Source of the DNA: a virus
Taxonomy: Duplodnaviria > Heunggongvirae > Uroviricota > Caudoviricetes
Length of the DNA: 64,000 nt
Virus record (IMG/VR): IMGVR_UViG_3300031555_002005
Strand: one strand, 5' to 3'
Shown here: one piece after another, positions 8,626-55,573 of the stretch
How the letters are laid out: each line of letters opens with the position of its first letter
Numbering within the stretch: the first letter of the stretch is position 1
Notes under the pieces: model-generated
Databases searched by the model: none
Told to the model about the DNA's origin: nothing
What the model saw: the letters and a program-made list of their open reading frames with translations, nothing else
Position numbers and translations under genes: made by a program

Positions 8626-9044
8626 TGAGCGAAAGAGAGAATTTTATTGTCGTCAATGGTCAAAAATATTATACCGGAACTGTTTTTCTGATTGATTTTC
8701 ATGGTAAGGTACAAGAGGCATCTTTTGTCTGCACTGTTGTCAAGACAAATAGAGTTCGATGTAAACTTGCTAACTCTTACTGGTTTATACATGCTGACGA
8801 TTTTCGCAAAAGAATTGTTGAGATCACAGATAAGGTTGATTCCAGTGTGCACATGCCCGTTACCAAAACAATGAAAGACACTGAGATTGGCAGCCTGTTT
8901 ATTGGCTGGCTGTGGTATATTTTTCTTATGGCAATTAGCACGATTTTTAAAAATGCAATTGGACTGTGGTGTTTTATTTCTTGGGTGTTTTTTACTTGGA
9001 GAGCTAAGAAAATAAAAGAGGAGGGGACTTACATTGAGTGGTAG
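8625..9044 (+). CDS. membrane-anchored hypothetical protein
   Basis: ATG overlaps stop (TAATG), RBS GGAGGA; C-terminal hydrophobic helices. Confidence 0.7.
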   Translation: MSERENFIVVNGQKYYTGTVFLIDFHGKVQEASFVCTVVKTNRVRCKLANSYWFIHADDFRKRIVEITDKVDSSVHMPVTKTMKDTEIGSLFIGWLWYIFLMAISTIFKNAIGLWCFISWVFFTWRAKKIKEEGTYIEW

Positions 9045-19726: not shown

Positions 19727-20254
19727 ATGAACCTAACAAAAGTAAGTAAATATATTAGTTTAATTTTGCGCCATAAGCCAGAAACAATTGGCATCAGCCT
19801 TGATGAGCATGGCTGGGCCAATGTAAAGGATCTTATTGATGGCGTAAATAAAACTCACAAGCTAGATATGAAAATGCTTGAAGAGATTGTAGCAACAGAT
19901 GATAAGCAGCGCTATTCTTTCAATGAAGATAAGACTATGATTCGTGCCAATCAGGGGCATTCTATTGATGTAGACGTGGAACTTGAAGAAGCTGTGCCTC
20001 CTGAGATGCTTTGGCATGGAACTGGTGTTAAATACATGAAGAGCATTGATACAGAGGGGCTTATTCCTAAGTCCAGATTGTATGTGCATTTGTCTACTGA
20101 TCCTAATACGGCAATGGAGGTCGGTAAGAGACATGGTGCACCTATGATTTACTGCATTGATGCGCTAAGAATGCATGAAGATGGATATAAGTTTTACAAA
20201 TCCAAGAACGGTGTGTGGTTAACTAAACATGTGCCTGCGGAGTATTTTAGGTAA
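19727..20254 (+). CDS. kptA: RNA 2'-phosphotransferase Tpt1/KptA
   Basis: Near full-length collinearity with KptA as I recall it: LRHKPE..GI.LD..GWA, FNED..IRANQGHS, WHGT, YVHLS, NGVWLT. Confidence 0.9.
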   Translation: MNLTKVSKYISLILRHKPETIGISLDEHGWANVKDLIDGVNKTHKLDMKMLEEIVATDDKQRYSFNEDKTMIRANQGHSIDVDVELEEAVPPEMLWHGTGVKYMKSIDTEGLIPKSRLYVHLSTDPNTAMEVGKRHGAPMIYCIDALRMHEDGYKFYKSKNGVWLTKHVPAEYFR

Positions 20255-20714: not shown

Positions 20715-21509
20715 ATGCCCAAATTTTTTGTAAGTTCTGATATTCATAGTGCATATACTCCGTGGATGAAGGCATTAAAAGAAGCGGGTTTTGATGAAAA
20801 CAATCCTAGTCACAAAATTGTCGTATGCGGAGATTTGTTCGATAGACTGGATGAATCTATTCAGGTGTACGATTTTGTTAAGGACATGCTTGAAAAAGAT
20901 AAGTTAATTTACGTAAAAGGAAATCACGAAAGTCTAATGGAAGAATGCCTTGAAAGAGGATACCCTGGAAGGCATGATTGGTCAAATGGTACGGCAAAAT
21001 CTATTATTGACCTCGTTCCCCATGCAGAGAATTTTTATGATGGTTGCGCCGTCGTACGTGAAAAAATGAAATCTTTGTGGGGCAAGACTGTCAATTATTT
21101 TGAGACTAAGAATTATATTTTTGTACATGGCTGGATCCCGGTTATTTGCAAGGATAATTTGCCTAGCTATTATACTAGAAATAGAAAGTTTGAATTTAAC
21201 CCAGAGTGGCGTCATGCGCACTTTTCTGAGTGGGAACAGGCTAGATGGTTAAACGGTATGGATATGGCCAGAAAAGGCTTTGTGGAGCCTGAGAAGACTA
21301 TTGTATGCGGACACTGGCATTGCAGCTATGGTCATATGATGGATGATATGGCTAAGAATGGCCCATTTGATTGTATTGATGAATTTGGAGAAACTGCAAT
21401 TTGGGAACCTTATTATGGAAATGGTATAATTGCAATTGATCGCTGCACTGCACATACTGGAGAGGTTAATGTTCTTGTCATTGAGGATGAACTGTTGGAG
21501 GAATTATGA
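20715..21509 (+). CDS. calcineurin-like metallophosphoesterase
   Basis: SDIHS, GDLFDR, GNHE, GHWH motifs. Confidence 0.85.
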   Translation: MPKFFVSSDIHSAYTPWMKALKEAGFDENNPSHKIVVCGDLFDRLDESIQVYDFVKDMLEKDKLIYVKGNHESLMEECLERGYPGRHDWSNGTAKSIIDLVPHAENFYDGCAVVREKMKSLWGKTVNYFETKNYIFVHGWIPVICKDNLPSYYTRNRKFEFNPEWRHAHFSEWEQARWLNGMDMARKGFVEPEKTIVCGHWHCSYGHMMDDMAKNGPFDCIDEFGETAIWEPYYGNGIIAIDRCTAHTGEVNVLVIEDELLEEL

Positions 21510-22857: not shown

Positions 22858-22983
22858 GACGGTGTAGCTCAGTTGGAAGAGCAATAGCCTTTGTCAGATG
22901 CAGGCTTGCACTAATTCAGTTCGATTCTGAAGTTTGGCACCATAAGCTATGGGTCGAGAGTTCGAGCCTCTCCACCGTCACCA
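22858..22983 (+). tRNA. interrupted tRNA: Lys(TTT) after removal of 50-nt nested insert (alternative register Gln TTG)
   Basis: acceptor gacggtg/caccgtc, D arm, anticodon stem atagc/gctat enclosing cttt+50 nt+taa, T arm gagag-ttcgagc-ctctc, CCA. Confidence 0.75.
22893..22942 (+). ncRNA. nested mini tRNA-like element (acceptor + T arm + ACCA)
   Basis: gtcagat/gtttggc 7-bp helix (3 G-U), ttcag-ttcgatt-ctgaa T arm, ends ACCA. Confidence 0.6.
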
Positions 22984-23450: not shown

Positions 23451-23604
23451 ATCCCAGTAGCTCAGCTGGATAGAGCAACGGTCTTCGGGGAGTTCGTTAA
23501 AAGGTAAGATACTTTAGGATAAAACCTAAGGAGATTACAGTTCGAGTCTGTTGCTCCCCACCATAAACCGTAGGTCGGGGGTTCGAGTCCCTCCTGGGAT
23601 ACCA
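23451..23604 (+). tRNA. interrupted tRNA: Arg(TCT) after removal of 77-nt nested insert (alternative register Arg TCG)
   Basis: acceptor atcccag/ctgggat, anticodon stem acggt/accgt enclosing cttc+77 nt+taa, T arm ggggg-ttcgagt-ccctc, CCA. Confidence 0.75.
23487..23563 (+). ncRNA. nested full-length tRNA-like element with 6-nt 'anticodon' loop
   Basis: ggggagt/gctcccc acceptor, tttagg-ataaaa-cctaag arm, acag-ttcgagt-ctgt T arm, ends ACCA. Confidence 0.6.
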
Positions 23605-23610
23605 AAATAT

Positions 23611-23745
23611 CGGGAACAGGTGGAATGGTATACACATCGGAACCATAACTGAGTTTTGATAAAAACTTGCCAACAGCAAATACGTGGACGTAAAATCCGA
23701 CGCTTTTGCAAGCATCCTTGGTTCGAATCCAAGGGTTCCCGACCA
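23611..23745 (+). tRNA. tRNA-like gene with ACAGCAA-module insert in anticodon-arm position (anticodon uncertain, possibly CAT)
   Basis: acceptor cgggaac/gttcccg, T arm ccttg-gttcgaatc-caagg, CCA; stem tcgga/tccga encloses hairpin agtttt-gata-aaaact + ACAGCAA (23673..23679). Confidence 0.55.
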
Positions 23746-23896: not shown

Positions 23897-24541
23897 ATGG
23901 AACAGAAGAAAAAAGATTATTCCAAGTATAGAAAAAAGTATTGGAGAGAACAAATAAAACATAGAGGTGTTCAATTTCTAGGTGGTGTGTGTCGTAATTG
24001 CGGAGGCGCTTTTGAAGATTGTTGCTATGATTTTCATCATTTAAATCCAAAAGAAAAAGACTTCACGATTGGAAATGTACAAACTAACGGAGCAAAAAGT
24101 TGGTTTAAAGTACGTGACGAATTAAAGAAGTGTGTACTATTATGTGCGAACTGTCATCGTCTTGCTCATGCAGGACTAATTGAAACAGATCTTCAGTTAT
24201 ATTTTAATGATGAATACTATGAATGGGATTTGACAAAATTTAAACTAATTGATTCATCAACTGGTTTGCCCAAGGATGCAAATATTACATGTCCTATATG
24301 CGGACAATACAAATCTCCAAATGCAAATAAATGTTCAGAGTGTGCAATGAAAGAGCAAATAAGATTTGAAGTCTCACGAGAAGAATTAAAAGAAATGATA
24401 TACACTATGGCATTTACTGATATTGGTAAAAAATATGGGGTTTCTGATAATTCTATTAGAAAAAGATGTGAAAAATTTGGATTACCATCTTACAAGAAAG
24501 ATATTCTAAAATACTCACCAGAAGAGTGGGCATCTATTTAG
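23897..24541 (+). CDS. HNH homing endonuclease
   Basis: FHHLNPKEKD...LLCANCHRLAH; C-terminal HTH-like tail. Confidence 0.85.
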   Translation: MEQKKKDYSKYRKKYWREQIKHRGVQFLGGVCRNCGGAFEDCCYDFHHLNPKEKDFTIGNVQTNGAKSWFKVRDELKKCVLLCANCHRLAHAGLIETDLQLYFNDEYYEWDLTKFKLIDSSTGLPKDANITCPICGQYKSPNANKCSECAMKEQIRFEVSREELKEMIYTMAFTDIGKKYGVSDNSIRKRCEKFGLPSYKKDILKYSPEEWASI

Positions 24542-25214: not shown

Positions 25215-25700
25215 ATGAATATTGAACAAGTAATTCTTTATAAAAGAATCGAAAAAGTACTTAAGAATTACCTAATAAATGACTTGGGTGATTCACAAAT
25301 GAAGAAAAAGGAAAGCTATTGTTTGAATTGTGGAGTTTCTATACCAAATAGAAATAAATATTGCTCAAACAAATGCCAACTAGATTTCCAATATAAAGAG
25401 TATATACAGAGATGGAAAAATGGGCTTGAAGATGGTATGAGAGGTGAATATCTTATATCAGTACACATTAGAAAATATTTAATGGAAAAGTTTGATAACA
25501 AATGCTCAAAATGTGGATGGGGAGAAATAAATCCTTATACCAAAAATGTACCACTAGAAGTCCATCATAAAGATGGAGATTATACCAATAATTCAGAAGA
25601 CAATCTTGACTTACTATGTCCAAATTGTCACTCATTAACAGAAACATATAAAGCTGCAAATAAAGGCAATGGAAGAAAAGATCGTAAAAAATACACATAA
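25215..25700 (+). CDS. HNH homing endonuclease
   Basis: EVHHKDGDYTNN..LDLLCPNCHSL; start may be internal ATG 25299. Confidence 0.85.
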   Translation: MNIEQVILYKRIEKVLKNYLINDLGDSQMKKKESYCLNCGVSIPNRNKYCSNKCQLDFQYKEYIQRWKNGLEDGMRGEYLISVHIRKYLMEKFDNKCSKCGWGEINPYTKNVPLEVHHKDGDYTNNSEDNLDLLCPNCHSLTETYKAANKGNGRKDRKKYT

Positions 25701-27322: not shown

Positions 27323-27922
27323 TTGACATTGGCGAAACATGTAACTACAGAAGAAATAGCAACAAGAATAAAAAATACTTTTAAACAAAATGTTTCATTA
27401 GTTGGAGAATATAAGAATAAACGATCAAAATTAACATTACATTGTAATGATTGTGGACATGAATGGGAATCTCCATCAAGTAGTGTTATATATGGAGATA
27501 GACACGAGTGTCCTCGGTGTGGAAGACATGCAAAACAATTGAATGAATTTCAATGTACAAACTGTGGACAAGTTGTGTATCGTAAAGATTCAGACATTAA
27601 AAAGAATCAAACAGGTAATTTCTTTTGTTCTCAACAATGTGGAAATGAGTTTAAAAATCGAATACGAAAAGAAAGTGGAGAATGGGATAACTCGTTAAGC
27701 TATAGACGGAAAGCATTTGAAACTTATGAACATTTATGTTGTGTATGCGGTTGGAATGAAGATGAAAGAATTTTAGAAGTTCATCATAAAGATGAAGATC
27801 GTACAAACAATATGGTAAATAATCTATGTATTCTATGTCCTACATGTCATAGAAAAATAACATTAGGATATTATGAATTAACAGATGATTTCAAGCTAGT
27901 TGATAAAAATCAAAAGAATTAA
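27323..27922 (+). CDS. HNH homing endonuclease with zinc ribbons
   Basis: EVHHKDEDRTNN..CILCPTCHRKI; several CxxC pairs. Confidence 0.85.
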   Translation: MTLAKHVTTEEIATRIKNTFKQNVSLVGEYKNKRSKLTLHCNDCGHEWESPSSSVIYGDRHECPRCGRHAKQLNEFQCTNCGQVVYRKDSDIKKNQTGNFFCSQQCGNEFKNRIRKESGEWDNSLSYRRKAFETYEHLCCVCGWNEDERILEVHHKDEDRTNNMVNNLCILCPTCHRKITLGYYELTDDFKLVDKNQKN

Positions 27923-28561: not shown

Positions 28562-28582
28562 AAAATCCCACTAACTTAATAT

Positions 28583-28712
28583 GCGGAAGTAGCTCAGCTG
28601 GGAGAGCAATAGTATTTATTTAAAAATGTGTTTAGATTAACACTAACAGCAATTTTTATTTAAAGAAGAAGTTGGGGACTATGGGTCGTAGGTTCGAGCC
28701 CTACCTTCCGCA
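28583..28712 (+). tRNA. tRNA-like gene with permuted ACAGCAA module in anticodon loop (unit D; anticodon unassigned)
   Basis: acceptor gcggaag/cttccgc, D and T arms canonical, stem atagt/actat encloses 64 nt: taaaaa-[gtgtt-tagatt-aacac]-tAACAGCAA-ttttta. Confidence 0.6.
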
Positions 28713-28724
28713 TCAACTAAATAT

Positions 28725-28852
28725 GCCAGAGTAGCTCAGTTGGTAGAGCACGTATATATCAACCAACGTGGTATGAAAATTTCACGCACAGCAATTTTAA
28801 TGATTCTTGCCTTTTAAGCACGTTGTCGTGGGTTCGAGTCCCATCTCTGGCA
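28725..28852 (+). tRNA. tRNA-like gene with ACAGCAA module (unit E; anticodon unassigned)
   Basis: acceptor gccagag/ctctggc, D/T arms canonical; insert has hairpin cgtg-N12-cacg + cACAGCAA (28788..28794); flanked by direct repeat agcacgt. Confidence 0.55.
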
Positions 28853-28862
28853 AACTTTATAT

Positions 28863-28981
28863 GGCGCAATGGTGTAATGGTAGCACAACGTAATAATTGA
28901 GGTTTGTTAAAATCTTAAACTGCAATTTTACAATGCATGATCACGCCGTAGGTTGAAGTTCGATTCTTCATTGCGTCTCCA
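28863..28981 (+). tRNA. tRNA-like gene with variant module ACTGCAA (unit F; anticodon unassigned)
   Basis: acceptor ggcgcaa/ttgcgtc, T arm tgaag-ttcgatt-cttca, CCA; hairpin gttt-N11-aaac + TGCAATTTTA. Confidence 0.5.
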
Positions 28982-29353: not shown

Positions 29354-30907
29354 ATGGAATTTATGAGTGCAGTTAGACAGACTCTCAATAATGAGTACAA
29401 TGTGTCTATCACTGAGAACGGCGCAGTTGGTTATAGAACCACTGGCAAGGAGCTGCTTGACCTGAACTTTGCAGTAGCATCTCTTCGTAAGATGACCGAT
29501 GCAGAAGTCGCAAAGAGATTCAAGAAGGCTTTTTGTGAAGATCAGGTTCTCGCAATGAAGTGGCTGTTCTACGCAAGAGACGTTCGTGGTGGTTTGGGTG
29601 AGCGTAGACTGTTCAGAGTTGTTCTGGCAGATCTGGTACAGTCCAATCCTGAAATGGTTATTCCTGTCATGAATCTGATTCCTGAGTATGGTCGCTACGA
29701 TGACCTGTGGTGTCTGTTAGATGACAAGGAAGCAGCTAATGTGATTTATCAGATTGTTGATAATCAGCTGAAGCGTGACTGGGAAAACATGGCTTCAAAG
29801 AAGCCTATTTCTATTCTGGCAAAGTGGATGCCTTCTATCAATGCATCTTCTGCTAAGACCAAGGAATACGGAAAGAAGCTGTGCAAGGCTCTGAAGATGA
29901 CTGAGCGTGAATACCGCAAGGCTCTGAGCAAGCTTCGTGCATATCTGGATGTTGTTGAAGTTAAGATGTCCGATAAGAACTGGTCTGCAATTAAGTATGA
30001 AGCAGTTCCTTCTCGTGCAAATCTGATTTACAACAGCGCATTCCTGAGAAATGACGAAGCAAGACGTAGAGAATATCTTGGCCAGCTTGAAAAGGGCGAG
30101 ACTAAGATTAACGCATCTACTCTGTTCCCTCACGATATTGCTCATAAGTATACTAACAACTCATGGGGTCGTGGTCTAAAGGCAAAGGATGCAACCATTG
30201 AAGCTCTGTGGAAGGCGCTACCTGACACTGTAAATGGCTGTGGTAATACTATTGTTGTTGCTGACGGCTCTGGTAGTATGACTTGCACTGTTGACAATCA
30301 CTCTCGTGTTACTGCACTTGAAGTTGCAAACGCACTGGCAATTTACTTTGCTGAGCACTCTTCTGGTCAGTTCAAGGATAAGTACATTACTTTCTCTGAA
30401 AGACCTCAGTTTGTTGACTTCAGCAATTGTAAGACTCTGCATGACAAGCTACACACTGCACTAATGCATAATGAAGTTGCAAATACTAACATCGAAAAGG
30501 TGTTTGATTTGATTCTGACTTCTGCGGTCAATAACCATATGCATCAGGAAGATCTTCCTCAGAACATCCTGATCATCTCTGATATGGAGTTTGATAGCTG
30601 TGCAACTTCTGGCAATGTTGATCGTTGGAGCTACCGTAACAGACCTACTCAGAAGCTATTCGATGTTATCGCTCAGAAGTACGCAAGAGCAGGTTACAAG
30701 ATGCCTCGTCTGGTATTCTGGAATGTAAACTCTCGCACTGGTACTATTCCTGTAAAGGAAAATGACCTTGGTGTGGCACTGGTCAGCGGTTTCTCTGTAA
30801 ACGTTGCCAAGATGGTCATGAGTGGCAAGACTGATCCTTTCGAGTGTCTGCTTGAAACTCTGAACTCTGAGAGATATGCTCCTGTTGAGGAAGCTTTAAA
30901 TCAGTAA
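29354..30907 (+). CDS. DUF2828 / TROVE(Ro60)-like protein with C-terminal vWA domain
   Basis: N-terminal ITENGAVGYRTTGKELLDLNF signature as I recall for DUF2828; MIDAS-like VVADGSGSM; strong RBS AGGAGG. Confidence 0.75.
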   Translation: MEFMSAVRQTLNNEYNVSITENGAVGYRTTGKELLDLNFAVASLRKMTDAEVAKRFKKAFCEDQVLAMKWLFYARDVRGGLGERRLFRVVLADLVQSNPEMVIPVMNLIPEYGRYDDLWCLLDDKEAANVIYQIVDNQLKRDWENMASKKPISILAKWMPSINASSAKTKEYGKKLCKALKMTEREYRKALSKLRAYLDVVEVKMSDKNWSAIKYEAVPSRANLIYNSAFLRNDEARRREYLGQLEKGETKINASTLFPHDIAHKYTNNSWGRGLKAKDATIEALWKALPDTVNGCGNTIVVADGSGSMTCTVDNHSRVTALEVANALAIYFAEHSSGQFKDKYITFSERPQFVDFSNCKTLHDKLHTALMHNEVANTNIEKVFDLILTSAVNNHMHQEDLPQNILIISDMEFDSCATSGNVDRWSYRNRPTQKLFDVIAQKYARAGYKMPRLVFWNVNSRTGTIPVKENDLGVALVSGFSVNVAKMVMSGKTDPFECLLETLNSERYAPVEEALNQ

Positions 30908-34474: not shown

Positions 34475-34502
34475 TTGACAAAATGGTAAAATGTGTTATA
34501 AT
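34475..34502 (+). promoter_or_regulatory. sigma70-type promoter
   Basis: TTGACA-N16-TATAAT; box starts 2 nt after -10. Confidence 0.8.
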
Positions 34503-34503
34503 A

Positions 34504-34520
34504 ACAATACAAATTTAATG
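34504..34520 (+). promoter_or_regulatory. ACAATACAAAATTAAT box copy (variant)
   Basis: acaatacaaatttaatg. Confidence 0.55.
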
Positions 34521-34535
34521 AAGGGAGTATACATA

Positions 34536-35630
34536 GTGACATATCTTGACTACGCTGCCACAACGCCAATATGTGATGCAGCACAGCAAACAATAATTAA
34601 GTATTTAAATTACTTTGGCAACCCATCAAGTTCTCATGAGTTTGGAAGACAATCCAGACTGTTAATCGAAGATGCACGTGAAAGAATTGCCCAATGTATC
34701 AACGCAGATCCTAGTGAAATTTACTTCACGTCTGGAGGTTCTGAAGCAAATACACTTGCGTTAAACAATAGGAGATATTCAGCGTCTTCAAAATTTGAGC
34801 ATCATTCTGTGGTGTCAAATTGGCCAAAAATTTCTATTACAAAAGATGGATTTATCAAGGTACATAAACTAAATAATATGATCTCAGAATGGTGGGAGGT
34901 TCCATTTGATGTTATGTCTTGCATGTATGTGAACAATGAAATTGGAACAATACAGCCAGTAAAAGAGCTATCTACTGTAGCGCATAGATATGGTATTTTA
35001 CTTCACACTGACGCAGTTCAGGCAATGCCTTATGTACACATAGACGTTAAAGATTTGGGTTGCGATATGTTATCTGCAAGTGGGCATAAGTTTGGTGCAC
35101 CAAAAGGCATAGGATTTTTATATGCAAATTCTCGTTCAAGAATCAAGCCGATCATTAATGGAGGCAAGCAAGAAAACTCTATGCGCCCAGGTACTGAAAA
35201 TATTTTAGGCATTCTGGCCATGGCTTCGGCGCTTGAAGACGCTGTGGAACATATGGATGAACGTAATGAGCGCATTAAATCTTTAAGAGACAGTCTGCTT
35301 GATAAGTTACTTAAAATTGATGGAGCGCATCTTAATGGCTCACTTGAAAATCGCATTCCAGGCAACATCAATATCAGATTTGATGGGGTTTACGGTTCAA
35401 GACTAGTTACATTGTGCAGTTTATATGGAGTTTATATTTCCGCAGGATCTGCATGCAACGAAGGCACCACTGAGCCAAGCCACGTGCTTAAAGCAATTAA
35501 TCTATCAGACGAAGAAGCATTAAGTAGCGTAAGAATTACTTTGGGGCATCAAACTACCGAAGAAGATGTTAACATAGCAGCAGATATTATTACAGCACTA
35601 GTTAAAAGGATTCGTTCAGATGAATCTTAA
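34536..35630 (+). CDS. cysteine desulfurase (NifS/IscS-like, class V aminotransferase)
   Basis: GTG start giving MTYLDYAATTP; PLP lysine SGHKFGAPKG; active-site SAGSACNEG. Confidence 0.88.
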   Translation: MTYLDYAATTPICDAAQQTIIKYLNYFGNPSSSHEFGRQSRLLIEDARERIAQCINADPSEIYFTSGGSEANTLALNNRRYSASSKFEHHSVVSNWPKISITKDGFIKVHKLNNMISEWWEVPFDVMSCMYVNNEIGTIQPVKELSTVAHRYGILLHTDAVQAMPYVHIDVKDLGCDMLSASGHKFGAPKGIGFLYANSRSRIKPIINGGKQENSMRPGTENILGILAMASALEDAVEHMDERNERIKSLRDSLLDKLLKIDGAHLNGSLENRIPGNINIRFDGVYGSRLVTLCSLYGVYISAGSACNEGTTEPSHVLKAINLSDEEALSSVRITLGHQTTEEDVNIAADIITALVKRIRSDES

Positions 35631-40123: not shown

Positions 40124-41509
40124 ATGGCTTATACAGCATTTATTACAAGAATTAAGAATCTGCGTACACACCCTAAGGCGGATCGACTGCAGATGGGTGA
40201 GTGCTTTGGTAACACTGTAATTGTCTCTCTGGAATACGAGGACAACCAGCTTGGCATTTACTTCCCTTCTGATGGACAGATTAGCACTGCATTTGCAGAA
40301 GCAAATAACCTGCTTCGCAAGAAGGATGAAAACGGCAATAACATTGGCGGTTACATGGATCCCGACAAGCGCAACGTCACTGCTATTAAGCTTCGTGGAG
40401 AAAAGTCTGATGGCCTGTTCCTGCCTCTGAAGTCTCTTGAGCCTTTTGGTGACATTACCACTCTGCGTGAGGGTGACCGAATTGATAACTTTAATGGACA
40501 TGAGATTTGCTGCAAGTATGTACCTTTTAAGCGTGAACGTACTGCCGCAGGTGGAGCAGGAAAGCGCATTAAGCGTAGAGCTAAGAGAAGCATTGCACCT
40601 CTGTTTTATGAGCATATGGACACTGAGCAGCTCGCCTACAATCTGGCAGCTTTTAAGCCCGGTGACGAGATTGAAATCACTCTAAAGATGCATGGCACTT
40701 CTCAGCGAACTGCACACCTACCTGTGTTTAAGGACTACAAGCGCACAATCTGGGACAAACTATTCCGTCGTGAAGGTACTCCTGTTTATGATTGGGGTTA
40801 CGTCTCTGGCACTCGTCGTACTGTTCTAGAGAATTTTGAAGGTGGATATTATGGATCTAACGAGTTCCGTGAAGCACATTCTAAGTTCTTTGAGGGCAAG
40901 CTGTGGAAGGGCGAAGAGGTCTACTACGAGGTGGTTGGTTTCACTCATACTGGCGCACCTATTATGTCTACGGCAGACAATAAGAAGCTGAACGACAAGG
41001 AGTTTGTTAAGCAGTATGGAAAGACTACTACTTTCTCTTATGGTTGTGCCCCTGATGGTGTAAATTCCGCAGATGGAGTTATTCCTCAGTCTGATATCTA
41101 CGTTTACCGTATGACAATGACCAATGAAGATGGTGATGTTGTCGAGTACACTCCTGATTTCATGCGCTATCGTTGTGAGCAGATGGGTGTTAAGACTGTC
41201 CCTGTGATGTGGAAGGGCACTATTCCTTACGCAGATTGGCTTGAAGCTAACACGTGGGAAAGCGCAGGGCATTATGCAATTACTCGTGCAGAAAAGTACT
41301 ATGATGGTCCCGACCCTATTGGCAAGACTCATGTCCGTGAAGGCGTTGTAGTTCGTATTCTGAACCGTCCTAAATTCTGTGCATACAAGCATAAGAACTG
41401 GTCTTTCAAGGCTCTTGAAGGAATTGTTAAGGTTGAAGCTGAGGCTCCTGATATGGAAGAAGCCGATGGCATTAATGAGGAAGTGATGACTGATGAATTT
41501 TCACAGTGA
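40124..41509 (+). CDS. ATP-dependent RNA ligase (Rnl2/Rnl5-like, N-terminal OB-like module)
   Basis: Motif I LKMHGTS (KxHG as in T4 Rnl2/DraRnl per memory); N-terminal ~150 aa extra domain. Confidence 0.7.
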   Translation: MAYTAFITRIKNLRTHPKADRLQMGECFGNTVIVSLEYEDNQLGIYFPSDGQISTAFAEANNLLRKKDENGNNIGGYMDPDKRNVTAIKLRGEKSDGLFLPLKSLEPFGDITTLREGDRIDNFNGHEICCKYVPFKRERTAAGGAGKRIKRRAKRSIAPLFYEHMDTEQLAYNLAAFKPGDEIEITLKMHGTSQRTAHLPVFKDYKRTIWDKLFRREGTPVYDWGYVSGTRRTVLENFEGGYYGSNEFREAHSKFFEGKLWKGEEVYYEVVGFTHTGAPIMSTADNKKLNDKEFVKQYGKTTTFSYGCAPDGVNSADGVIPQSDIYVYRMTMTNEDGDVVEYTPDFMRYRCEQMGVKTVPVMWKGTIPYADWLEANTWESAGHYAITRAEKYYDGPDPIGKTHVREGVVVRILNRPKFCAYKHKNWSFKALEGIVKVEAEAPDMEEADGINEEVMTDEFSQ

Positions 41510-42302
41510 TGAATGGATCATGCGGAATGTTCGAGAGCACTACAACGAGGCTCTCGAACACTTCCCCGAAGATAGAATTGTAGGTATCTTTTATCAGGGC
41601 AGCGGTAACTACGGCCTTGACTATGAAGGTTCTGATGTAGACACCAAGCTGATTGTCACGCCAACCTTTGAAGATATTGCAATGAATAAAAAGGCAGTAA
41701 GTACAACTCATATCAGAGAGAATGAAGAGCACATCGATTTTAAGGATATTAGACTCTATATCCAGACTTTCAGAAAGCAAAACTTGAACTTCCTAGAAAT
41801 CCTGTTTACTAAATATGCAATTATCAATCCTATGTATAAAGATGAATGGGATAGACTTGTAAAGGCTCGTGAGAAAATTGCACGCTATGCACCTGTACAG
41901 GCTATTAAGTCTATGAAGGGCATTGCAAAAGAAAAGTATCATGCAATGGAACATCACTATCCTGCACGAATGGCATGGATTGAGAAGTTTTCTTACGATC
42001 CGAAACAACTGCATCATCTACTGAGAGTTAATGAATATATCAGCAGATACATTGACGGCGAATCATATGAAGATTGCTTGATTTCAAAAATGCCAGACTA
42101 TTTACAGTCAGTAAAACTTGGTTTTCACAACCTGGATGATGCTCGCATGATTGCTAATTGGGCTATTGGCTGTATTGATAAAATGTGCGATAAGTATCTA
42201 GAGACTTGTTCAACTGAAGTTGATAAAGATGTTGATGTTCTACTTGATGATGTGCAGTACAACATTATGAAGATTGCTATTAAGAAAGAAATTGGTGATT
42301 AA
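41493..42302 (+). CDS. Pol-beta superfamily nucleotidyltransferase (RNA-ligase-associated type)
   Basis: GSGNYGLDYEGSDVD (GS..DxD NTase signature); overlaps ligase gene end. Confidence 0.7.
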   Translation: MNFHSDEWIMRNVREHYNEALEHFPEDRIVGIFYQGSGNYGLDYEGSDVDTKLIVTPTFEDIAMNKKAVSTTHIRENEEHIDFKDIRLYIQTFRKQNLNFLEILFTKYAIINPMYKDEWDRLVKAREKIARYAPVQAIKSMKGIAKEKYHAMEHHYPARMAWIEKFSYDPKQLHHLLRVNEYISRYIDGESYEDCLISKMPDYLQSVKLGFHNLDDARMIANWAIGCIDKMCDKYLETCSTEVDKDVDVLLDDVQYNIMKIAIKKEIGD

Positions 42303-42303
42303 A

Positions 42304-43200
42304 ATGAACAGACCTAGTTTAATTTTACTTGTCGGAATTCCCGGCTCAGGCAAAACTACATACGCAGAAAAATATATTAAAGAGAATCCCAATACAGTAC
42401 ATCTTTCCTCCGACAAGATTCGTGAAGAACTTTGGGGTAATGAAGCTACTCAGGGCGACAACAACAAAGTGTTTTCTCTGATGCAGTCTAGAGCAATTGA
42501 AGCACTGAATAACGGACAGTCTGTGGTATATGACGCTACGAACATTACAAGAAAAGACAGATCTTACATTATCACTCTTTGCCCTAAGTTTGCTAAGATT
42601 GAGTGCCATATTATTTGGGCACCTATTGAGACTTGCATCGAGAGAGACGCTGCCAGAGAACGCACTGTTGGCAAGGAAGTCATTGATAGAATGCTTAAGC
42701 GATTCCAGGCACCTTATTATGATGAAGGGTTTGATGGTATCTATATTCGTTATTCTGATGACAATTTTAATGCAAAAGAATACAGTAAAAAGATAGTTAT
42801 GAACATGGATATCCCTCATGATAACCCTCATCACACTTTGAATATTTTAGATCATTGTGCTGAAGCAGGATCATATTTTTATGAAAGAGGTCAGTATGAC
42901 GAAGTGTGGGTGGCAGCTATGTATCATGACATAGGAAAACCATACGTAAAAGCATTTGTTGATAGCAAAGGTAATCCTTGTGAGAATGCTCATTACTACC
43001 AGCATCAATGTTTGGGTTCATATATGTATTATGGAATGACTAGTGAAATTGGTGGTACTAGTGACACATGGGTAAAAATTGCTTGGCTGATTTCCACACA
43101 TATGGATCCTTATCTAAATACGAAATATTACAATAGACTTCCTGCTTATCTAAAGAAACAGGTAGATTTGCTTCACGAGGCGGACAGGAATGCACATTAA
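42304..43200 (+). CDS. polynucleotide kinase (P-loop) fused to HD phosphohydrolase (Pnkp-like)
   Basis: Start ATG 42304; GIPGSGKTT; C-terminal MYHDIGKP ... HMDP. Confidence 0.75.
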   Translation: MNRPSLILLVGIPGSGKTTYAEKYIKENPNTVHLSSDKIREELWGNEATQGDNNKVFSLMQSRAIEALNNGQSVVYDATNITRKDRSYIITLCPKFAKIECHIIWAPIETCIERDAARERTVGKEVIDRMLKRFQAPYYDEGFDGIYIRYSDDNFNAKEYSKKIVMNMDIPHDNPHHTLNILDHCAEAGSYFYERGQYDEVWVAAMYHDIGKPYVKAFVDSKGNPCENAHYYQHQCLGSYMYYGMTSEIGGTSDTWVKIAWLISTHMDPYLNTKYYNRLPAYLKKQVDLLHEADRNAH

Positions 43201-43225
43201 GTAATTAAAAATAAAAGATGCATAG

Positions 43226-43242
43226 ACGATACAAAATTAATG
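43226..43242 (+). promoter_or_regulatory. ACAATACAAAATTAAT box copy (variant)
   Basis: acgatacaaaattaatg upstream of LAGLIDADG gene. Confidence 0.5.
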
Positions 43243-43260
43243 TAAAATTGGAGTGGTTCT

Positions 43261-44049
43261 ATGCCAAATAAAATTGATAAAAAAACAGAAAAAGATATAA
43301 TTGATTTATATAATAATGGATACGGGACTATGGAAATATCACAAAAATGTGAAATTCATAGAGCAACTGTTCAAAGAATTTTAAAAAGAAATAATATAGA
43401 TTTACGTAAACGTACACCTGTACATTATGACATTCATTTCTTTGACGAATACAATGAAAATAGTTGTTATTGGGCAGGGTTTATTGCAGCAGATGGATAT
43501 GTGAGATCCGACAGAGCAGCTGTAACAATACATTTAGCAAGTGTAGATTATGAGCATTTGTTAAAACTTGCCAAATTAACCAATTATGAAGGGAACGTCA
43601 AACTCAATAAGAATGATTGTTATATTACATTTGCTGGCAAATGGTTTCAAGATGCTCTAGATAAAAATTTTAATATACGTCCAAATAAAACATTTGATAT
43701 TACAATTCCAGACAAAATTCCAGAAGATATGGTTAAACATTTTATTCGTGGTTACTTTGATGGCGATGGTAGTGTAACTCATACAAACAATTATTTACGC
43801 ATTAATTTCACTTCTGGATCTGAAACTATGCTTCAACAGATTATGAATTTTGTATATAACAATAATATATTAGTTCGAAATAATACTGGAATGCCACCAA
43901 TCCATCAATATGTAATTAACTATTCTTGTAGTGTTGCATATAAAATTCTAGACATATTATATGGATGTTCATCAGACTTAACAAGACTGGATAGAAAATA
44001 TCAATTATATTTAAGTTATAAAAAATCTAAAAGTCCATTGGCAAATTAA
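43261..44049 (+). CDS. LAGLIDADG homing endonuclease with N-terminal HTH
   Basis: GFIAADGYV and GYFDGDGSV motifs; free-standing between Pnkp-like and Thg1-like genes. Confidence 0.85.
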   Translation: MPNKIDKKTEKDIIDLYNNGYGTMEISQKCEIHRATVQRILKRNNIDLRKRTPVHYDIHFFDEYNENSCYWAGFIAADGYVRSDRAAVTIHLASVDYEHLLKLAKLTNYEGNVKLNKNDCYITFAGKWFQDALDKNFNIRPNKTFDITIPDKIPEDMVKHFIRGYFDGDGSVTHTNNYLRINFTSGSETMLQQIMNFVYNNNILVRNNTGMPPIHQYVINYSCSVAYKILDILYGCSSDLTRLDRKYQLYLSYKKSKSPLAN

Positions 44050-44069
44050 TTTGATTGGAGAATAATATT

Positions 44070-44903
44070 ATGGATACAAGTGAACTAGCAAAAAGAATGA
44101 AAGACTATGAGTCTGTGCCAAAAGCAAGGCTGATGAGGCGTTGTCCCGTGGCATGTCGTATTGACGGAAAGGCTCACCATAGCTTTACAAAAGGATTCAA
44201 AAGACCGTTTGACGAAGTTTATATTAAGTCGATGCAGAAAACAGCAAAATATTTATGTGAAAATGTACAAGGTGTTGTGCTGTCATATCAGCAGTCAGAT
44301 GAAATTACTTTGATTTTAATTGACTATAAAGAATTCAACACATCTCCATATTTTGACTACGAAATTCAAAAGCTGTGTTCAATTCTAGCTTCTATGGCAA
44401 CTATGGCGTTCAATAAGTTTTTTGCAAACGAATGTTGTCAGTGGTTTGAAAATAACATTGATTGGAGTGACCTAGACGTTGTCGCAGCAGATGAAGATAT
44501 CAAGAAGTTGTTTAATGCCTATACCAAGGCTTGTGAAAAAGGTGCAATGTTCGATGCTAGAGTATTTAATATCCCTAAGGAAGAAGTCATGAACCTTCTA
44601 TATTGGAGACAGTTAGATGCTACTAGAAACAGCATTCAAATGGTTGGGCAGGCAAACTTCTCTCATAATCAGCTTCACGGTAAGAACTGTAGCGATATTC
44701 AGGATATGTTAATGTTCGAAAAGGGCATCAACTGGAACGATTATCCGACTCACCTAAAGCGTGGCAGCTGTTGTATTAAGAAACCTTTCAAGATTAATGA
44801 GGGCACCGAGCAGGAAACAGTTCGTAACAAATGGGTAATTGACACTGAGATACCTATTTTCACGCAAGATAAAGATTATGTAAATAAATTGATTTTTATT
44901 TAA
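44070..44903 (+). CDS. tRNA-His guanylyltransferase-like protein (Thg1/TLP, 3'-5' polymerase)
   Basis: ACRIDGKAHHSFTKGFKRPFDE, SYQQSDEITL; start ATG 44070 (track 44055 TTG). Confidence 0.85.
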   Translation: MDTSELAKRMKDYESVPKARLMRRCPVACRIDGKAHHSFTKGFKRPFDEVYIKSMQKTAKYLCENVQGVVLSYQQSDEITLILIDYKEFNTSPYFDYEIQKLCSILASMATMAFNKFFANECCQWFENNIDWSDLDVVAADEDIKKLFNAYTKACEKGAMFDARVFNIPKEEVMNLLYWRQLDATRNSIQMVGQANFSHNQLHGKNCSDIQDMLMFEKGINWNDYPTHLKRGSCCIKKPFKINEGTEQETVRNKWVIDTEIPIFTQDKDYVNKLIFI

Positions 44904-44911
44904 AAAAGTTC

Positions 44912-44939
44912 TTGACAAACAAAGAATATATGATATAAT
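44912..44939 (+). promoter_or_regulatory. sigma70-type promoter
   Basis: TTGACA-N16-TATAAT. Confidence 0.8.
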
Positions 44940-44954
44940 ACACACAGTTAAATA

Positions 44955-44971
44955 ACAACACAAAATTAATT
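44955..44971 (+). promoter_or_regulatory. ACAATACAAAATTAAT box copy (variant)
   Basis: acaacacaaaattaatt then RBS AAGGAG. Confidence 0.5.
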
Positions 44972-44986
44972 AAGGAGAAAAACATT

Positions 44987-46993: not shown

Positions 46994-47021
46994 AGCGATG
47001 CTAGAAAGGAGTTGGAATTAT

Positions 47022-48767: not shown

Positions 48768-49937
48768 ATGATTCATTCTTATCAGAAACCTTTGAGTGGC
48801 AAAAGTGTTGGTGTAGTATTTGGCTCTTTTGCCCCTCTACACCAAGGTCATCTGGACTGCATTATGAGGGCAAAGAAAGAAAATGATGGCGGCGCAATTG
48901 TAATCGTTTGCGGATTCGACGGTGACAAGGGTGGTAAAATGATGCCACTAAAGCGAAGATACAGATATGTTAGAGAGTTCTTCTCTGATGATGATTTGGT
49001 TGCTGTATATGCAATTGATGACGGTGAGATTGGCGCAGAGCCTTATCCTAATGGTTGGGAAAAGTGGCTCGACGAGTTTTGGAATATTTGGGAAAAGGCC
49101 ACTGAGCTATCTTGGAAAGAAACAGATGGTCCAGAAGGTTTTGAAACTAGTGTTAGTTTGGAACGTCCTAAGCGCCACTGGTATGCAGGTGACCCTAATT
49201 ATGTGAGTGACCTCGTTGAACGTGGCGAAGAAGCAACTCTGCTTGACCGTGTAGCAGACAATCCTATTTGTGCAACAATGATTCGTCAGAATCCTATTAA
49301 GCACTGGGATAAAATTACTTTCCCCTTCCGTCGTCTGTTTAGCCACAACATTCTAATTTGTGGCACAGCATCTGAAGGTAAATCAACTCTTACAACGGAT
49401 CTTGGTAAGTATTTCAATGCGCCTTATAGCTATGAATGGGCACGTGACTATATGAGAGAAAGTTGCGTTATTGACTGGGAACTAGATGGCGCAGATTATA
49501 TGGCTTTCCTTGAAGGCCAGTACAACCTAAACAAGCAGATGATTAATTCTCCTGGCAATCATGGCATTTTCTTTGCTGATTCTGACTCTATGGTAACTAG
49601 AATGTATGCAGAGTATTATGCTCAGGATGAAACTTGTGCGCTTACTCAAGAAGAATTTGAACGAGTAGCAGTAATGGCCGATGAAATTACACGTAAATCT
49701 CGTTGGGACAAGATCTTCTTACTGGCACCGCATGGTGTATTTGTTGACGACCATGAAAGATATATGGCTCATTCTGGCATGAAGGAACGGCAAGAGCTAT
49801 TTGAAATCCTATGCAGAAACATTAAGGAATCTGGAAACTGGGACAAGGTTACAATTCTAACTGGAAACTATTACGAAAATTTCATGGCAATTGTAAGTTA
49901 TGTAAAAGATCGAATTGAGAAAGGCATGGCTGATTAA
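48768..49937 (+). CDS. nadR: NadR-type bifunctional NMN adenylyltransferase / ribosylnicotinamide kinase
   Basis: GVVFGSFAPLHQGHLDCIMRA (HxGH) plus P-loop CGTASEGKST. Confidence 0.85.
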   Translation: MIHSYQKPLSGKSVGVVFGSFAPLHQGHLDCIMRAKKENDGGAIVIVCGFDGDKGGKMMPLKRRYRYVREFFSDDDLVAVYAIDDGEIGAEPYPNGWEKWLDEFWNIWEKATELSWKETDGPEGFETSVSLERPKRHWYAGDPNYVSDLVERGEEATLLDRVADNPICATMIRQNPIKHWDKITFPFRRLFSHNILICGTASEGKSTLTTDLGKYFNAPYSYEWARDYMRESCVIDWELDGADYMAFLEGQYNLNKQMINSPGNHGIFFADSDSMVTRMYAEYYAQDETCALTQEEFERVAVMADEITRKSRWDKIFLLAPHGVFVDDHERYMAHSGMKERQELFEILCRNIKESGNWDKVTILTGNYYENFMAIVSYVKDRIEKGMAD

Positions 49938-53617: not shown

Positions 53618-55573
53618 GTGAATAAAATTGATAGAATTAAAGAACTCGTAGAGCTGCTAAATCATTATCGAAATGAATATTATAACAACTCTCGCAGTGA
53701 AATCTCAGATTTTGAATATGACCAGTTATTTGACGAACTTGTTAGTCTAGAATCAGAAACTGGTTTTATTATGGCAGTGTCACCAACACAAACAGTTGGT
53801 TATGAGGTTAAGTCAGAACTGAAAAAAGTGAAACATAATCATCCTATGTTGTCACTTGATAAAACCAAAAGCGTAGATGATGTACTTTCATTCCTTGATG
53901 GAAAAGATGGCGCAATTATGGCCAAGATGGATGGGCTGACATGTTCGCTACGATATTTGAATGGAGAGCTTGTTTCTGCTGAAACGAGAGGCAATGGTGA
54001 GGTCGGAGAGGATATTTTGCACTGTGCAAAAACTATTAAAAATATTCCTCTTAAAATTAATTGCACAGAAGAAATCATTATTGATGGCGAAGTGATTATT
54101 ACATATGATGACTTTGAAAAAATCAATTCCACATTACCAGACGATCAAAAATACAAACATCCACGAAACCTTGCGTCAGGATCTATTAGACAGCTTGATA
54201 GCAATATTGCCGCACAAAGAAACATGAAGTTCATTGCGTGGAAAGTTATTAAAGGTTGTAGTAATAATTCTTTTATACGTAGGTTGATGTTTGCAAGTGG
54301 ACTTGGGTTTAGCACTACTCCACTAATTCCACTGCCGACGATTTTTCAAAATAAAGAGCAGATTCAAATTGCGATTGAACAAATTAAGATTTGGTCTAAA
54401 GAAGAAGGATATCCTATTGACGGATGTGTGTTTGGATATGACGATGTAGCTTATGGTAAATCACTTGGTGCAACAGGACACCATCTGCGTAGCCAACTTG
54501 CTTTTAAGTTTTATGATGAGTTATATCCTACAAGATTACAATATATTGATTGGACAATTGGTAAGTCTTCTCAGCTAACACCAACAGCAGTATTTGATAC
54601 TGTAGAAATTGATGGAGCCGATGTGTCACGTGCATCACTACATAATATCAGTATTATTAAAAATCTTGGACTGACTAATGGTTGTACTGTAAATGTATTT
54701 AAGGCCAATCAAATTATCCCACAGATTGACTCTTGTGAAAATGATGGCAGTGGTGATATTGAAATCCCTATGACTTGCCCGATTTGTGGAGGAGCAACTG
54801 CTATTAAAAGAGATAATGAATCTGAGGTGCTAATCTGTACAAATTCTGAGTGTGCGGGCAAGAAGCTTGCGCAGTTTACTCACTTTGTTTCTAAGAAAGG
54901 TATGGATATTAAAAATTTATCTGAGGCAACACTTCAAGATTTGATCTCACATGGATTTATCCACAACTTCAAAGACATTTACCATCTTGCTGACCATAAA
55001 CAGCAACTTATTCGTCTAGATGGATTTGGCAAAAAATCAGTGGAAAATCTGCTAAAATCTATTGAAGATTCGAGGAATGTGAAGCTTGAGAATTTTATTG
55101 CTGCACTAGGCATTCCAAACATTGGACTATCAGCGTCTAAAACTATATCAAAACACTTCAGTGGCAGCTATAAAGAATTAATGAATACATATTTTTACTG
55201 GCGTTTTGATTGGACAGCTCTTGAAGACTTTGGAGATGTTATGGCAGAAAGTATCAATAAGTATTTGTGTAATCATTTTGAAGAAATTAATGAATTGGCC
55301 GATGAAATGAATTTTATACTTCCAGAGGAGCATAATGATAATTCTCTTGAAGGATTAAAGTTTTGCATAACTGGCAGTTTCAGTCAGCCTAGAGATGGCC
55401 TCAAGAAGCAGTTAGAGAGCCGTGGAGCCAAGTTTATCAGCTCCGTGAGCAAGAATCTGGACATTCTTTTCGCAGGAGAGAAGGCTGGCAGCAAGCTTAC
55501 AAAGGCACAACAGCTTGGTGTTAGAGTTGCAAATGAAGAAGAATTAATGAAGATGCTTGGAGAACATATATGA
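53618..55573 (+). CDS. ligA: NAD-dependent DNA ligase
   Basis: adenylation KMDGLT, Zn finger CPICGG..CTNSEC, HhH and C-terminal BRCT-like. Confidence 0.92.
   Translation: MNKIDRIKELVELLNHYRNEYYNNSRSEISDFEYDQLFDELVSLESETGFIMAVSPTQTVGYEVKSELKKVKHNHPMLSLDKTKSVDDVLSFLDGKDGAIMAKMDGLTCSLRYLNGELVSAETRGNGEVGEDILHCAKTIKNIPLKINCTEEIIIDGEVIITYDDFEKINSTLPDDQKYKHPRNLASGSIRQLDSNIAAQRNMKFIAWKVIKGCSNNSFIRRLMFASGLGFSTTPLIPLPTIFQNKEQIQIAIEQIKIWSKEEGYPIDGCVFGYDDVAYGKSLGATGHHLRSQLAFKFYDELYPTRLQYIDWTIGKSSQLTPTAVFDTVEIDGADVSRASLHNISIIKNLGLTNGCTVNVFKANQIIPQIDSCENDGSGDIEIPMTCPICGGATAIKRDNESEVLICTNSECAGKKLAQFTHFVSKKGMDIKNLSEATLQDLISHGFIHNFKDIYHLADHKQQLIRLDGFGKKSVENLLKSIEDSRNVKLENFIAALGIPNIGLSASKTISKHFSGSYKELMNTYFYWRFDWTALEDFGDVMAESINKYLCNHFEEINELADEMNFILPEEHNDNSLEGLKFCITGSFSQPRDGLKKQLESRGAKFISSVSKNLDILFAGEKAGSKLTKAQQLGVRVANEEELMKMLGEHI

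Follow-up and report, generated by a model that had tools for sequence, protein, structure and literature searches.

A block of five open reading frames (ORFs), all on the + strand, was found at positions 40124-44903 of a 64,000-nt stretch of viral DNA (IMG/VR record IMGVR_UViG_3300031555_002005, Caudoviricetes; the whole stretch is called the window below). It comprises genes for an RNA ligase, a nucleotidyltransferase (NTase), a kinase fused to an HD domain (kinase-HD), a LAGLIDADG endonuclease and a Thg1-like protein (TLP; Table 1). The block is probably, at roughly 60%, a phage-encoded module for the healing and sealing of RNA ends, and of tRNA ends in particular. An earlier note on this DNA had named the same five genes from the sequence alone. 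All five were borne out by profile, structure or comparative tests, and profile and structure searches did not reassign the ligase or the Thg1-like ORF to unrelated families.

The ligase matched the phrog_968 RNA ligase family (9e-66). Among curated models, PF21189 (PHA02142 OB domain; residues 6-102) and PF09414 (RNA_ligase) gave weak matches, the two Pfam scores being 23 and 21.3 bits against a cut-off of 27, and TIGR02306 (Deinococcus DRB0094 ligase) matched residues 7-196 (4.8e-13; 48.7 bits against a cut-off of 151). As these scores lay below the curated cut-offs, the protein is a divergent relative rather than an equivalog. A profile built from 54 diverse homologues (33-66% identity) matched the Naegleria gruberi RNA ligase NgrRnl (5COT, residues 8-180, E = 6e-8), the match being significant only over the stretch that begins with the N-terminal OB domain and ends with the motif I lysine. 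This relative was reached only with the profile of diverse homologues, and searches of solved structures with the single sequence or a shallow profile returned nothing useful. Across the 54 sequences, K188, G191, E269, G272, E406, G407, K422 and K424 were invariant, as were motifs I (KxxG), III, IV and V, which were assigned by eye. The architecture, in which an N-terminal OB domain precedes the nucleotidyltransferase domain, and the KxxG motif I are common to the Rnl5 ligases of N. gruberi and Deinococcus radiodurans, the family that provided the best solved relatives in the profile search. K188 is the predicted adenylylation lysine, and both the NgrRnl match and the invariant motifs bear out the Rnl5-like guess made earlier for this KMHG protein, which is accordingly described here as a divergent, putative Rnl5-like ATP-dependent RNA ligase predicted to seal 3'-OH and 5'-PO4 ends.

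The NTase matched phrog_388 (3e-17) and scored 18.4 bits against Pfam RlaP (PF10127), under the cut-off of 23; 30 of its 33 homologues (73-95% identity) matched RlaP and no other family (best 1.7e-6). Its AF2 model (pLDDT 88.5) suggests a Pol-beta nucleotidyltransferase fold with a helical C-terminal domain, and the top Foldseek matches of that model were kanamycin nucleotidyltransferase and HalB (probability 1.0). No RlaP structure for comparison came up among the solved structures searched, and single-sequence and shallow-profile searches of solved structures gave nothing useful for the NTase. Residues G36 and S37 of the GS motif and the DxD carboxylates D48 and D50 were invariant among the homologues, and the overlap of the NTase gene with the ligase gene is an adjacency to RNA ligase of the kind seen for RlaP. 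The protein is a predicted RlaP-family Pol-beta nucleotidyltransferase that would add one or two nucleotides to RNA 3'-OH ends, in agreement with the 3'-end addition that had been raised as a possibility.

The kinase-HD protein combined a kinase (residues 16-147; AAA_33, 1e-27; TIGR04075 bacterial Pnkp kinase, 5e-21), whose best solved relatives were Pnkp1 (4XRP, 2e-11) and the CthPnkp kinase (4GP7), with an HD domain (residues 187-281) whose Pfam match was borderline (20.3 bits, 7e-4, against a cut-off of 22). Motifs of both halves were kept in 39 homologues, namely the P-loop GxxxSGK, SSD, DATN and R.R of the kinase and the HH...H, HDiGK, AHyY.H, HM.P and LheaD of the HD domain. The protein is therefore a predicted bifunctional end healer, with an N-terminal polynucleotide 5'-kinase and a C-terminal HD phosphoesterase. 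The TLP scored 96.8 bits against PF04446 (1e-27; cut-off 29.2), matched phrog_4717 (2e-86) and had as best solved relative the Bacillus thuringiensis TLP (4KGK, 2.8e-59, whole length). RIDG and SDE could be read, without an alignment, at the positions expected for the catalytic carboxylates. Relative to 4KGK, the phage protein has an insertion of ~40 residues (residues about 124-163), and, in a further difference from the B. thuringiensis enzyme, its gene sits in an apparent ligase operon. It is of the bacterial TLP type and a predicted template-dependent 3'-5' nucleotidyltransferase. Bacterial TLPs repair 5'-truncated tRNAs, and the 5'-end tRNA rebuilding ascribed to this gene in the earlier note suits a homologue of this type.

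Relatives of the ligase were numerous. The viral-contig collection contained 258, on contigs of roughly 130-200 kb, and metagenomes contained more than 8,000 homologues, a few labelled Lachnospiraceae or Cellulosilyticum; clustered at 50% identity, the ligase homologues gave 2,150 representatives. Gene linkage was counted over the 10 kb on either side of the ligase, in loci fetched from 80 related viral contigs. The NTase was present in 64 of the 80, the kinase-HD in 68, the TLP in 18 and a DUF2828 gene in 43, all on the ligase strand, and the order ligase, NTase, kinase-HD was found within 6.5 kb in half of the loci (40/80). The linkage of the NTase and the kinase-HD to the ligase across these relatives indicates that the arrangement is not due to chance. 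In one of them (L095), a different OB+RNA_ligase protein of 391 aa (L095:15417-16592) occupied the ligase slot, with RlaP, kinase-HD and TLP in place; this replacement was too diverged from the 461-aa ligase of the window to be linked to it by tblastn. Such a swap in situ, with the neighbours kept, points to selection for the function rather than for a particular gene. Among isolated phages, three large siphoviruses of Bacillus (Kirov, PBC2 and vB_BcoS-136) came closest, with protein identities of about 50%, and in the two whose annotation was examined, Kirov and vB_BcoS-136, the ligase is followed by a homologous gene annotated 'polynucleotide kinase'. A megablast search of the block against 50,697 phage records gave no match.

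The ATG starts at 42304 (kinase-HD) and 44070 (TLP) were those used in gene calls on identical metagenome contigs. No convincing terminator was found inside the block, and just past the stop codon of the Thg1-like gene lies a sigma-70-type promoter with 12/12 hexamer matches and an extended TG (TTGACA-16-TG-TATAAT). As the promoter follows the Thg1 stop and no convincing terminator interrupts the genes, ligase to Thg1 apparently forms a single transcription unit, of which the promoter likely marks the end. The ~70-nt intergenic element that holds this promoter (window 44898-44976) had three matches in L095, at least two of them intergenic.

The block had been described as interrupted by the LAGLIDADG gene, and comparison with relatives showed a true insertion. 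The encoded protein matched LAGLIDADG_3 (58.1 bits, 1e-15) and phrog_4645 (1e-38), had an N-terminal HTH_23 domain and carried the two motifs GFIAADGYV and GYFDGDGSV of a double-motif, free-standing enzyme. The gene is absent at the same site from two close relatives. In L095 (NTase 94% and TLP 85% identical to those of the window), about 20 nt separate the kinase-HD stop from the Thg1 start, and in L089 (ligase 92% identical) an 85-aa ORF fills the site. The LAGLIDADG gene is a selfish homing-endonuclease insertion with no apparent role in the pathway. In L089, a GIY-YIG endonuclease gene (L089:10642-11310) lies between the NTase and kinase-HD genes, and the two ligase homologues checked against Pfam (P0245 and P0257) contain an intein of ~350 aa, with a LAGLIDADG endonuclease, that interrupts the ligase directly behind its motif I lysine. 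These LAGLIDADG, GIY-YIG and intein invasions mark the locus as a hot spot for selfish elements. Four further ligase homologues (P0250, P0254, P0260 and P0347) resemble P0245 and P0257 in length (about 790-813 aa for all six) and in having two matched stretches. Between the window and L089, the genes beside the LAGLIDADG and GIY-YIG insertions had 68-77% DNA identity, compared to 88-92% for the flanks. The density of homing endonucleases was also high around the tRNA array, with HNH endonuclease genes inside it (window 23897-24541, 25215-25700 and 27323-27922) and GIY-YIG/NUMOD3 genes upstream of it (window 12072-12944 and 17548-18603).

The substrates of the module and the order of action of its enzymes, as we infer them, are as follows. 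The P-loop kinase would phosphorylate the 5'-OH end of a broken tRNA, and the fused HD domain would strip the 2',3'-cyclic or 3'-phosphate from the other end. RlaP would restore the one or two nucleotides lost at the 3'-OH end, and the Thg1-like enzyme would rebuild lost 5' nucleotides against the opposite strand. The Rnl5-like ligase would then adenylylate the 5'-PO4 via K188 and seal it to the 3'-OH. Other genes of the window may be dispersed accessory parts of the same tRNA maintenance, namely Tpt1 with a metallophosphoesterase, a Ro-like protein with three tRNA-like RNAs, and a NadR-like enzyme. The main purpose of the module is most likely to keep host and phage tRNAs working when host anticodon nucleases or toxins cut them, since the reversal of such damage fits both the literature and the large tRNA array.

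Among the accessory genes, the Tpt1 that had been reported was confirmed by an equivalog model (NF002014) with a score above the cut-off. By eye, and in comparison with the residues given in PMC6097658, its LRH, IRANQGHS and SRLYVHL stretches hold the candidate catalytic R-H-R-R. A search of the viral collection yielded only five close relatives of this Tpt1, and no contig with one of them is among those known to have the ligase. The calcineurin-type metallophosphoesterase lies two small ORFs downstream of Tpt1, an adjacency kept in L090-L093. It also matched positions 173-312 of phrog_8238, a kinase-phosphatase-ligase family, and its sequence resembles the phosphatase module of bacterial Pnkp-type proteins. 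The NadR-like enzyme is a possible source of NAD+ for Tpt1 and for the NAD-dependent DNA ligase (53618-55573). The NifS-like desulfurase and the presence of more than 20 tRNAs, both listed earlier, were likewise found (21 tRNAs by ARAGORN, 22 by Rfam and 25 by ARAGORN with introns allowed). Two further HD-type proteins are encoded just upstream of the ligase, and the replication and repair genes nearby include a primase at 35747 and RecJ at 46998 in addition to the DNA ligase.

Table 1. Positions of the ORFs, RNA genes and promoter of the window discussed in the text.
Feature	Position	Strand	Remarks
RNA ligase	40124-41509	+	461 aa; K188-M-H-G191
NTase	41493-42302	+	269 aa; 17-nt overlap with the ligase gene; QGSGNYG...DVD
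Kinase-HD	42274 (TTG) or 42304 (ATG) to 43200	+	ATG preferred by gene callers
LAGLIDADG endonuclease	43261-44049	+	insertion spans 43201..44054, ~850 bp
Thg1-like protein	44055 (TTG) or 44070 (ATG) to 44903	+	
Sigma-70-type promoter	44912..44939	+	just past the Thg1 stop; perfect match
tRNA-Lys(UUU), interrupted	22858..22983	+	50-nt tRNA-like minihelix 22893-22942 inside the anticodon
tRNA-Arg(UCU), interrupted	23451..23604	+	77-nt tRNA-like element 23487-23563 inside the anticodon
Three tandem tRNA-like RNAs	28582-28714, 28724-28853, 28863-28981	+	hairpin + AACAGCAA motif replaces the anticodon loop
DUF2828 + DUF7788 (vWA-like) protein	29354..30907	+	PF11443 2.5e-35; PF25043 3.4e-45; phrog_850 1e-141
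Tpt1/KptA NAD+-dependent RNA 2'-phosphotransferase	19727..20254	+	NF002014 250.7 bits, cut-off 239; phrog_5470 5e-76
Calcineurin-type metallophosphoesterase	20715..21509	+	Metallophos 1e-13; phrog_246 4e-24; phrog_8238
NadR-like NMN adenylyltransferase/kinase	48768..49937	+	CTP_transf_like + AAA_28; phrog_3462 3e-60
Cysteine desulfurase (NifS-like)	34491-35630		Aminotran_5 2e-63

Several of the tRNAs reported by Rfam and ARAGORN exceeded the normal length. Two tRNA genes of the window, for Lys(UUU) and Arg(UCU), are interrupted inside the anticodon by a tRNA-like element. The Lys insert opens with G1 of a 7-bp stem and has ACCA at its end; without it, the gene gives a 76-nt tRNA with the loop CUUUUAA (Rfam tRNA, 55.8 bits over the whole span). 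The Arg insert has the stem GGGGAGU/GCUCCCC followed by ACCA and is itself called as a tRNA by ARAGORN; its removal leaves a 77-nt tRNA with the loop CUUCUAA, and only the two exon halves of this gene match tRNA-Arg genes of isolated phages. At the same array positions in L090, L091 and L095, the syntenic genes are an intact 76-nt tRNA-Lys(ttt) and an intact 77-nt tRNA-Arg(tct), and these same-length counterparts confirm the insert boundaries. The identities Met-CAU and Arg-UCG called by ARAGORN were rejected, as the boundaries follow the inner acceptor stem and CCA and the syntenic genes are Lys-UUU and Arg-UCU. The interrupted genes are the sole tRNAs for Lys and for Arg(UCU) in the window, where Lys codons occur at 84 per 1000 and AGA is the main Arg codon.

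Across the window and the fetched viral-contig loci, 25 distinct interrupted tRNAs with 22 different stem sequences were found, with inserts of 44-119 nt, an insert being defined as ending at its CCA (loci L005, L007, L009, L011, L013-L015, L017, L043, L057, L092, L095, L100, L117, L118, L121, L126, L142, L151, L154 and L155). All inserts have N-CCA at the 3' end, and the 7 nt that open each insert pair with the 7 nt that precede the discriminator. This pairing was 7/7 in 15 of the first 16 cases (6/7 in the other) and in 10/10 of the pattern-scan cases, and in a shifted register at least six pairs were found in 0/75. The first nucleotide of the insert is G in 20 cases and C in five, and the discriminator is A in 18. 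All 25 have U34 anticodons, with insertion after CUU, CUUN and similar contexts, and precise removal yields canonical CUU-NN-A-A/C loops with the anticodons UUU, UAA, UUG, UCU, UAU, UGU and UAC. A pattern scan of the viral collection that was independent of the ligase gave 71 stretches, nine of them nested tRNAs under the same strict definition; the sample numbers of these nine overlap with those of the ligase relatives. Others of the 71 had different inserts or inserts bounded differently. Three of the nine could be evaluated at the contig level, and an Rnl5-type ligase was present in each; in L142 it lies within 6 kb of the nested tRNA, next to a metallophosphoesterase.

Self-splicing group I or II introns, whose sizes exceed 44-119 nt, are unlikely candidates for the inserts on size alone, and Rfam found only tRNA. 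In archaeal and eukaryal tRNA splicing, too, an intervening sequence has to leave the anticodon loop and the halves have to be joined by a protein ligase. The phage inserts differ in having no bulge-helix-bulge motif and no splicing endonuclease, each being a tRNA-like minihelix that ends in CCA and follows position 34 or 35 rather than position 37. In MALAT1-mascRNA processing, a tRNA-like structure similarly serves as a built-in cleavage signal for RNases P and Z. No published description of tRNA-like inserts in anticodons was found in the literature searched. Loci from other environments (within L104-L140, e.g. L120, L125 and L131) contained tRNA inserts of 30-64 nt with T-arm-like hairpins, without a CCA end or with other boundaries, and the strict class may be only part of a wider and more diverse phenomenon.

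Several points weigh against the end-healing and sealing module as set out above. Both the ligase and the NTase score below Pfam's own cut-offs, and the AF2 model of the ligase was poor (pLDDT 33), built from a shallow alignment of sequences 80-92% identical. The preferred substrate of Rnl5 enzymes such as NgrRnl and DraRnl is a nicked duplex whose 3'-OH strand is RNA, not a broken loop, and the phage ligase is ~120 aa longer than NgrRnl, which makes its substrate uncertain. Tpt1 is ~20 kb away from the block, none of the 80 relatives has it within 10 kb of the ligase, and the interrupted tRNA genes of the phage itself offer an alternative endogenous substrate. The ligase, with or without the healing enzymes, may indeed serve as the sealing step in the splicing of these tRNAs, a role compatible with repair to which we give a little less than even odds. 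RNase P leaves a 3'-OH on the upstream fragment and an RNase Z-type cut a 5'-PO4 downstream; as the insert ends are those of a mature tRNA (acceptor nucleotide 1 and CCA), host RNase P and an RNase Z/BN-like activity would excise the insert. The cut at insert nucleotide 1 would place a 3'-OH on the 5' exon, that after the insert CCA a 5'-PO4 on the 3' exon, and the phage ligase would join the halves in the anticodon loop. The halves would plausibly have the 3'-OH/5'-PO4 ends that ATP-dependent Rnl enzymes need and that RtcB, the usual bacterial RNA ligase, cannot use. The uniform insert ends of the 25 cases, with a 7-bp stem and CCA and a pairing abolished by a register shift, argue for such splicing, as do the canonical loops left by removal, the match of the Lys and Arg genes to intact syntenic ones, their being the sole readers of very common codons in the window, and the 3/3 evaluable contigs with an Rnl5-type ligase. 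On the other side, the RNase Z of Firmicutes is inhibited by CCA, which leaves the 3' cut without an assigned enzyme. The co-occurrence test was tiny and mostly within one phage group, homologous ligase/kinase-HD pairs also occur in Bacillus phages, no tRNA being present in the 67 kb of phage Kirov that were examined, and the part of L003 seen has 16 tRNAs and no insert. Moreover, with ends of the RNase P and Z type there would be no need for a kinase, an HD domain, RlaP or a TLP, and splicing thus leaves part of the block unexplained. The 25 anticodon-interrupted tRNAs do strengthen the earlier remark that the gene set fits with split tRNA genes, whereas their link to the ligase is one that we infer. 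Taken further, and more tentatively, the phage might possess a protein-dependent tRNA splicing pathway of a kind undescribed in bacteria and their viruses, in which minihelix 'introns' would be excised by RNases P and Z and the exons rejoined by the Rnl5-like ligase. The split U34 tRNA genes (Lys-UUU, Arg-UCU, Leu-UAA, Gln-UUG and others) would then be essential, with kinase-HD, RlaP and TLP as end-correcting helpers. If this were true, the 'repair' cassette would be machinery on which tRNA maturation depends, a new mode of splitting and rejoining tRNAs would be added to those known, and Rnl5-type ligases, and possibly RlaP, bacterial TLPs and Tpt1 as well, would gain a natural substrate and a phenotype that can be selected.

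The earlier note had also read into the gene set a 2'-phosphate removal step and with it a ligation chemistry of the fungal and plant type. In such a scheme, the cyclic phosphate would be opened to 3'-OH/2'-PO4 ends, the ligase would demand or accept the 2'-PO4, and Tpt1 would afterwards remove the junction 2'-phosphate with NAD+. The Tpt1 is bona fide; the claim of this chemistry rests on it alone, the closest solved relative of the ligase being Rnl5 and not the Trl1 ligase, and we consider the scheme unlikely. Of the parts of the Trl1 and Tpt1 pathway only Tpt1 is present, the healing domains are of the HD and calcineurin types, and a scan of window proteins that did not cover every ORF gave no 2H phosphodiesterase. 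The HD healing domains of Runella remove 2', 3' and cyclic phosphates completely, which would leave nothing for Tpt1 to act on. The scheme also has to accommodate the distance of Tpt1 from the block, its absence near the ligase in all 80 relatives and the scarcity of its close relatives in the viral collection. What speaks for it, besides Tpt1 itself, is a NadR-like gene for NAD+ salvage and the neighbouring lambda-phosphatase-type metallophosphoesterase, adjacent to Tpt1 in the window and in L090-L093, whose family opens 2',3'-cyclic phosphates to 2'-NMP or mixtures (PMC2190708), together with the Runella cluster that joins Tpt1, a ligase and HD-Pnk (PMC6097658). Repair of DNA or RNA-DNA hybrid ends during replication, in place of tRNA repair, appears very improbable. 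The primase, RecJ and NAD-dependent DNA ligase genes do lie nearby; yet RlaP, TLP, Tpt1 and the putatively Ro-like protein belong to RNA or tRNA metabolism, a large tRNA array accompanies the conserved block and a dedicated DNA ligase is already present. The healing of both DNA and RNA ends by HD-Pnk of Runella would suit repair of this sort, as would the action of Rnl5 enzymes on duplex nicks.

The end-healing and sealing module is a gene set of a known kind, to which a very large uncultured lineage is added here. Phage RNA-repair repertoires were reportedly described by Burroughs & Aravind in 2016, as cited by Iyer et al. in 2021 (PMC7824862) and 2022 (PMC9503650). These repertoires include ATP-dependent ligases, PNK, HAD, HD and calcineurin phosphatases, RlaP, CCA-adding enzyme, Thg1, KptA/Tpt1, Ro/TROVE with a tRNA-like partner, and many phage tRNAs. 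The toolkit had been presented as broader than the classic phage paradigm; it is broader than Pnkp plus Rnl1 of T4, but this breadth was already catalogued (PMC7824862, PMC9503650). The surveyed phages (Iyer et al.) are isolated or jumbo phages, whereas the present lineage is uncultured and represented by metagenome contigs, with most parts of the kit in one 64-kb stretch, a ligase of the Rnl5 type rather than Rnl1 or Rnl2, and interrupted tRNA genes, which go unmentioned in the passages of those surveys that were consulted. RlaP adds one or two NMP to damaged RNA 3' ends in vitro, and even T4 encodes an RlaP, NrdC.11 (PMC12776372), besides its Pnkp, Rnl1 and Rnl2. Compared to T4, the phosphatase here is an HD domain instead of the DxD acylphosphatase of T4 Pnkp, an Rnl5-like ligase with its OB domain at the N-terminus takes the place of Rnl1, and TLP and Tpt1 are added.

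The Runella slithyformis cluster (PMC6097658) shares with the phage a ligase gene overlapping its neighbour, a healer with kinase and HD domains, and Tpt1. The domain order is kinase then HD in the phage and HD then kinase in Runella, and the phage kinase-HD is therefore HD-Pnk-like in its predicted action but not a member of HD-Pnk as defined (PMC6097658). The phage also lacks an MTase-HIT gene, has its Tpt1 gene apart from that of the ligase, and adds RlaP and TLP. The RtcB-RlaP-RtcA operons of Pseudomonas (PMC12776372) also have an RlaP gene directly beside an RNA ligase; the phage partner is an ATP-dependent 5'-PO4 ligase and not RtcB, and the phage RlaP is divergent, below the Pfam cut-off. 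In the phage lineage, the ligase has been replaced in situ and the locus repeatedly invaded by homing endonucleases and inteins, and the same genomes carry tRNA genes unable to work unless two RNA halves are joined.

The DUF2828 gene that accompanies the ligase in many relatives encodes in the window a protein with a weak VWA_2 match, for which the PHROGs family name is 'RNA-binding protein', and is followed by a gene for a Band-7 protein. No TROVE match and no sequence match to any solved structure was obtained for it. Three tandem tRNA-like RNAs lie directly upstream of the gene, and likewise in at least five relatives (L007, L034, L060, L062 and L071). The Rfam YrlA match of the trio reached 25 bits against a gathering score of 69 and straddled two neighbouring genes, and the trio was therefore not filed as Y RNAs. 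By its position, the DUF2828 protein is possibly paired with the trio in a Ro/Y-RNA-like manner. Another tRNA-like gene of 136 nt (window 23610-23745) has an acceptor stem, a T arm, a CCA end and a large internal expansion with CAACAGCAAAT; the overlapping call that ARAGORN makes here, 'tRNA-Arg(cct) with intron', is a forced one. A pair of neighbouring tyrosine recombinase-like genes (window 9034-10008 and 10091-11005; Phage_integrase, MrpR-type core-binding domain) sits in what otherwise looks like a large phage of the virulent type.

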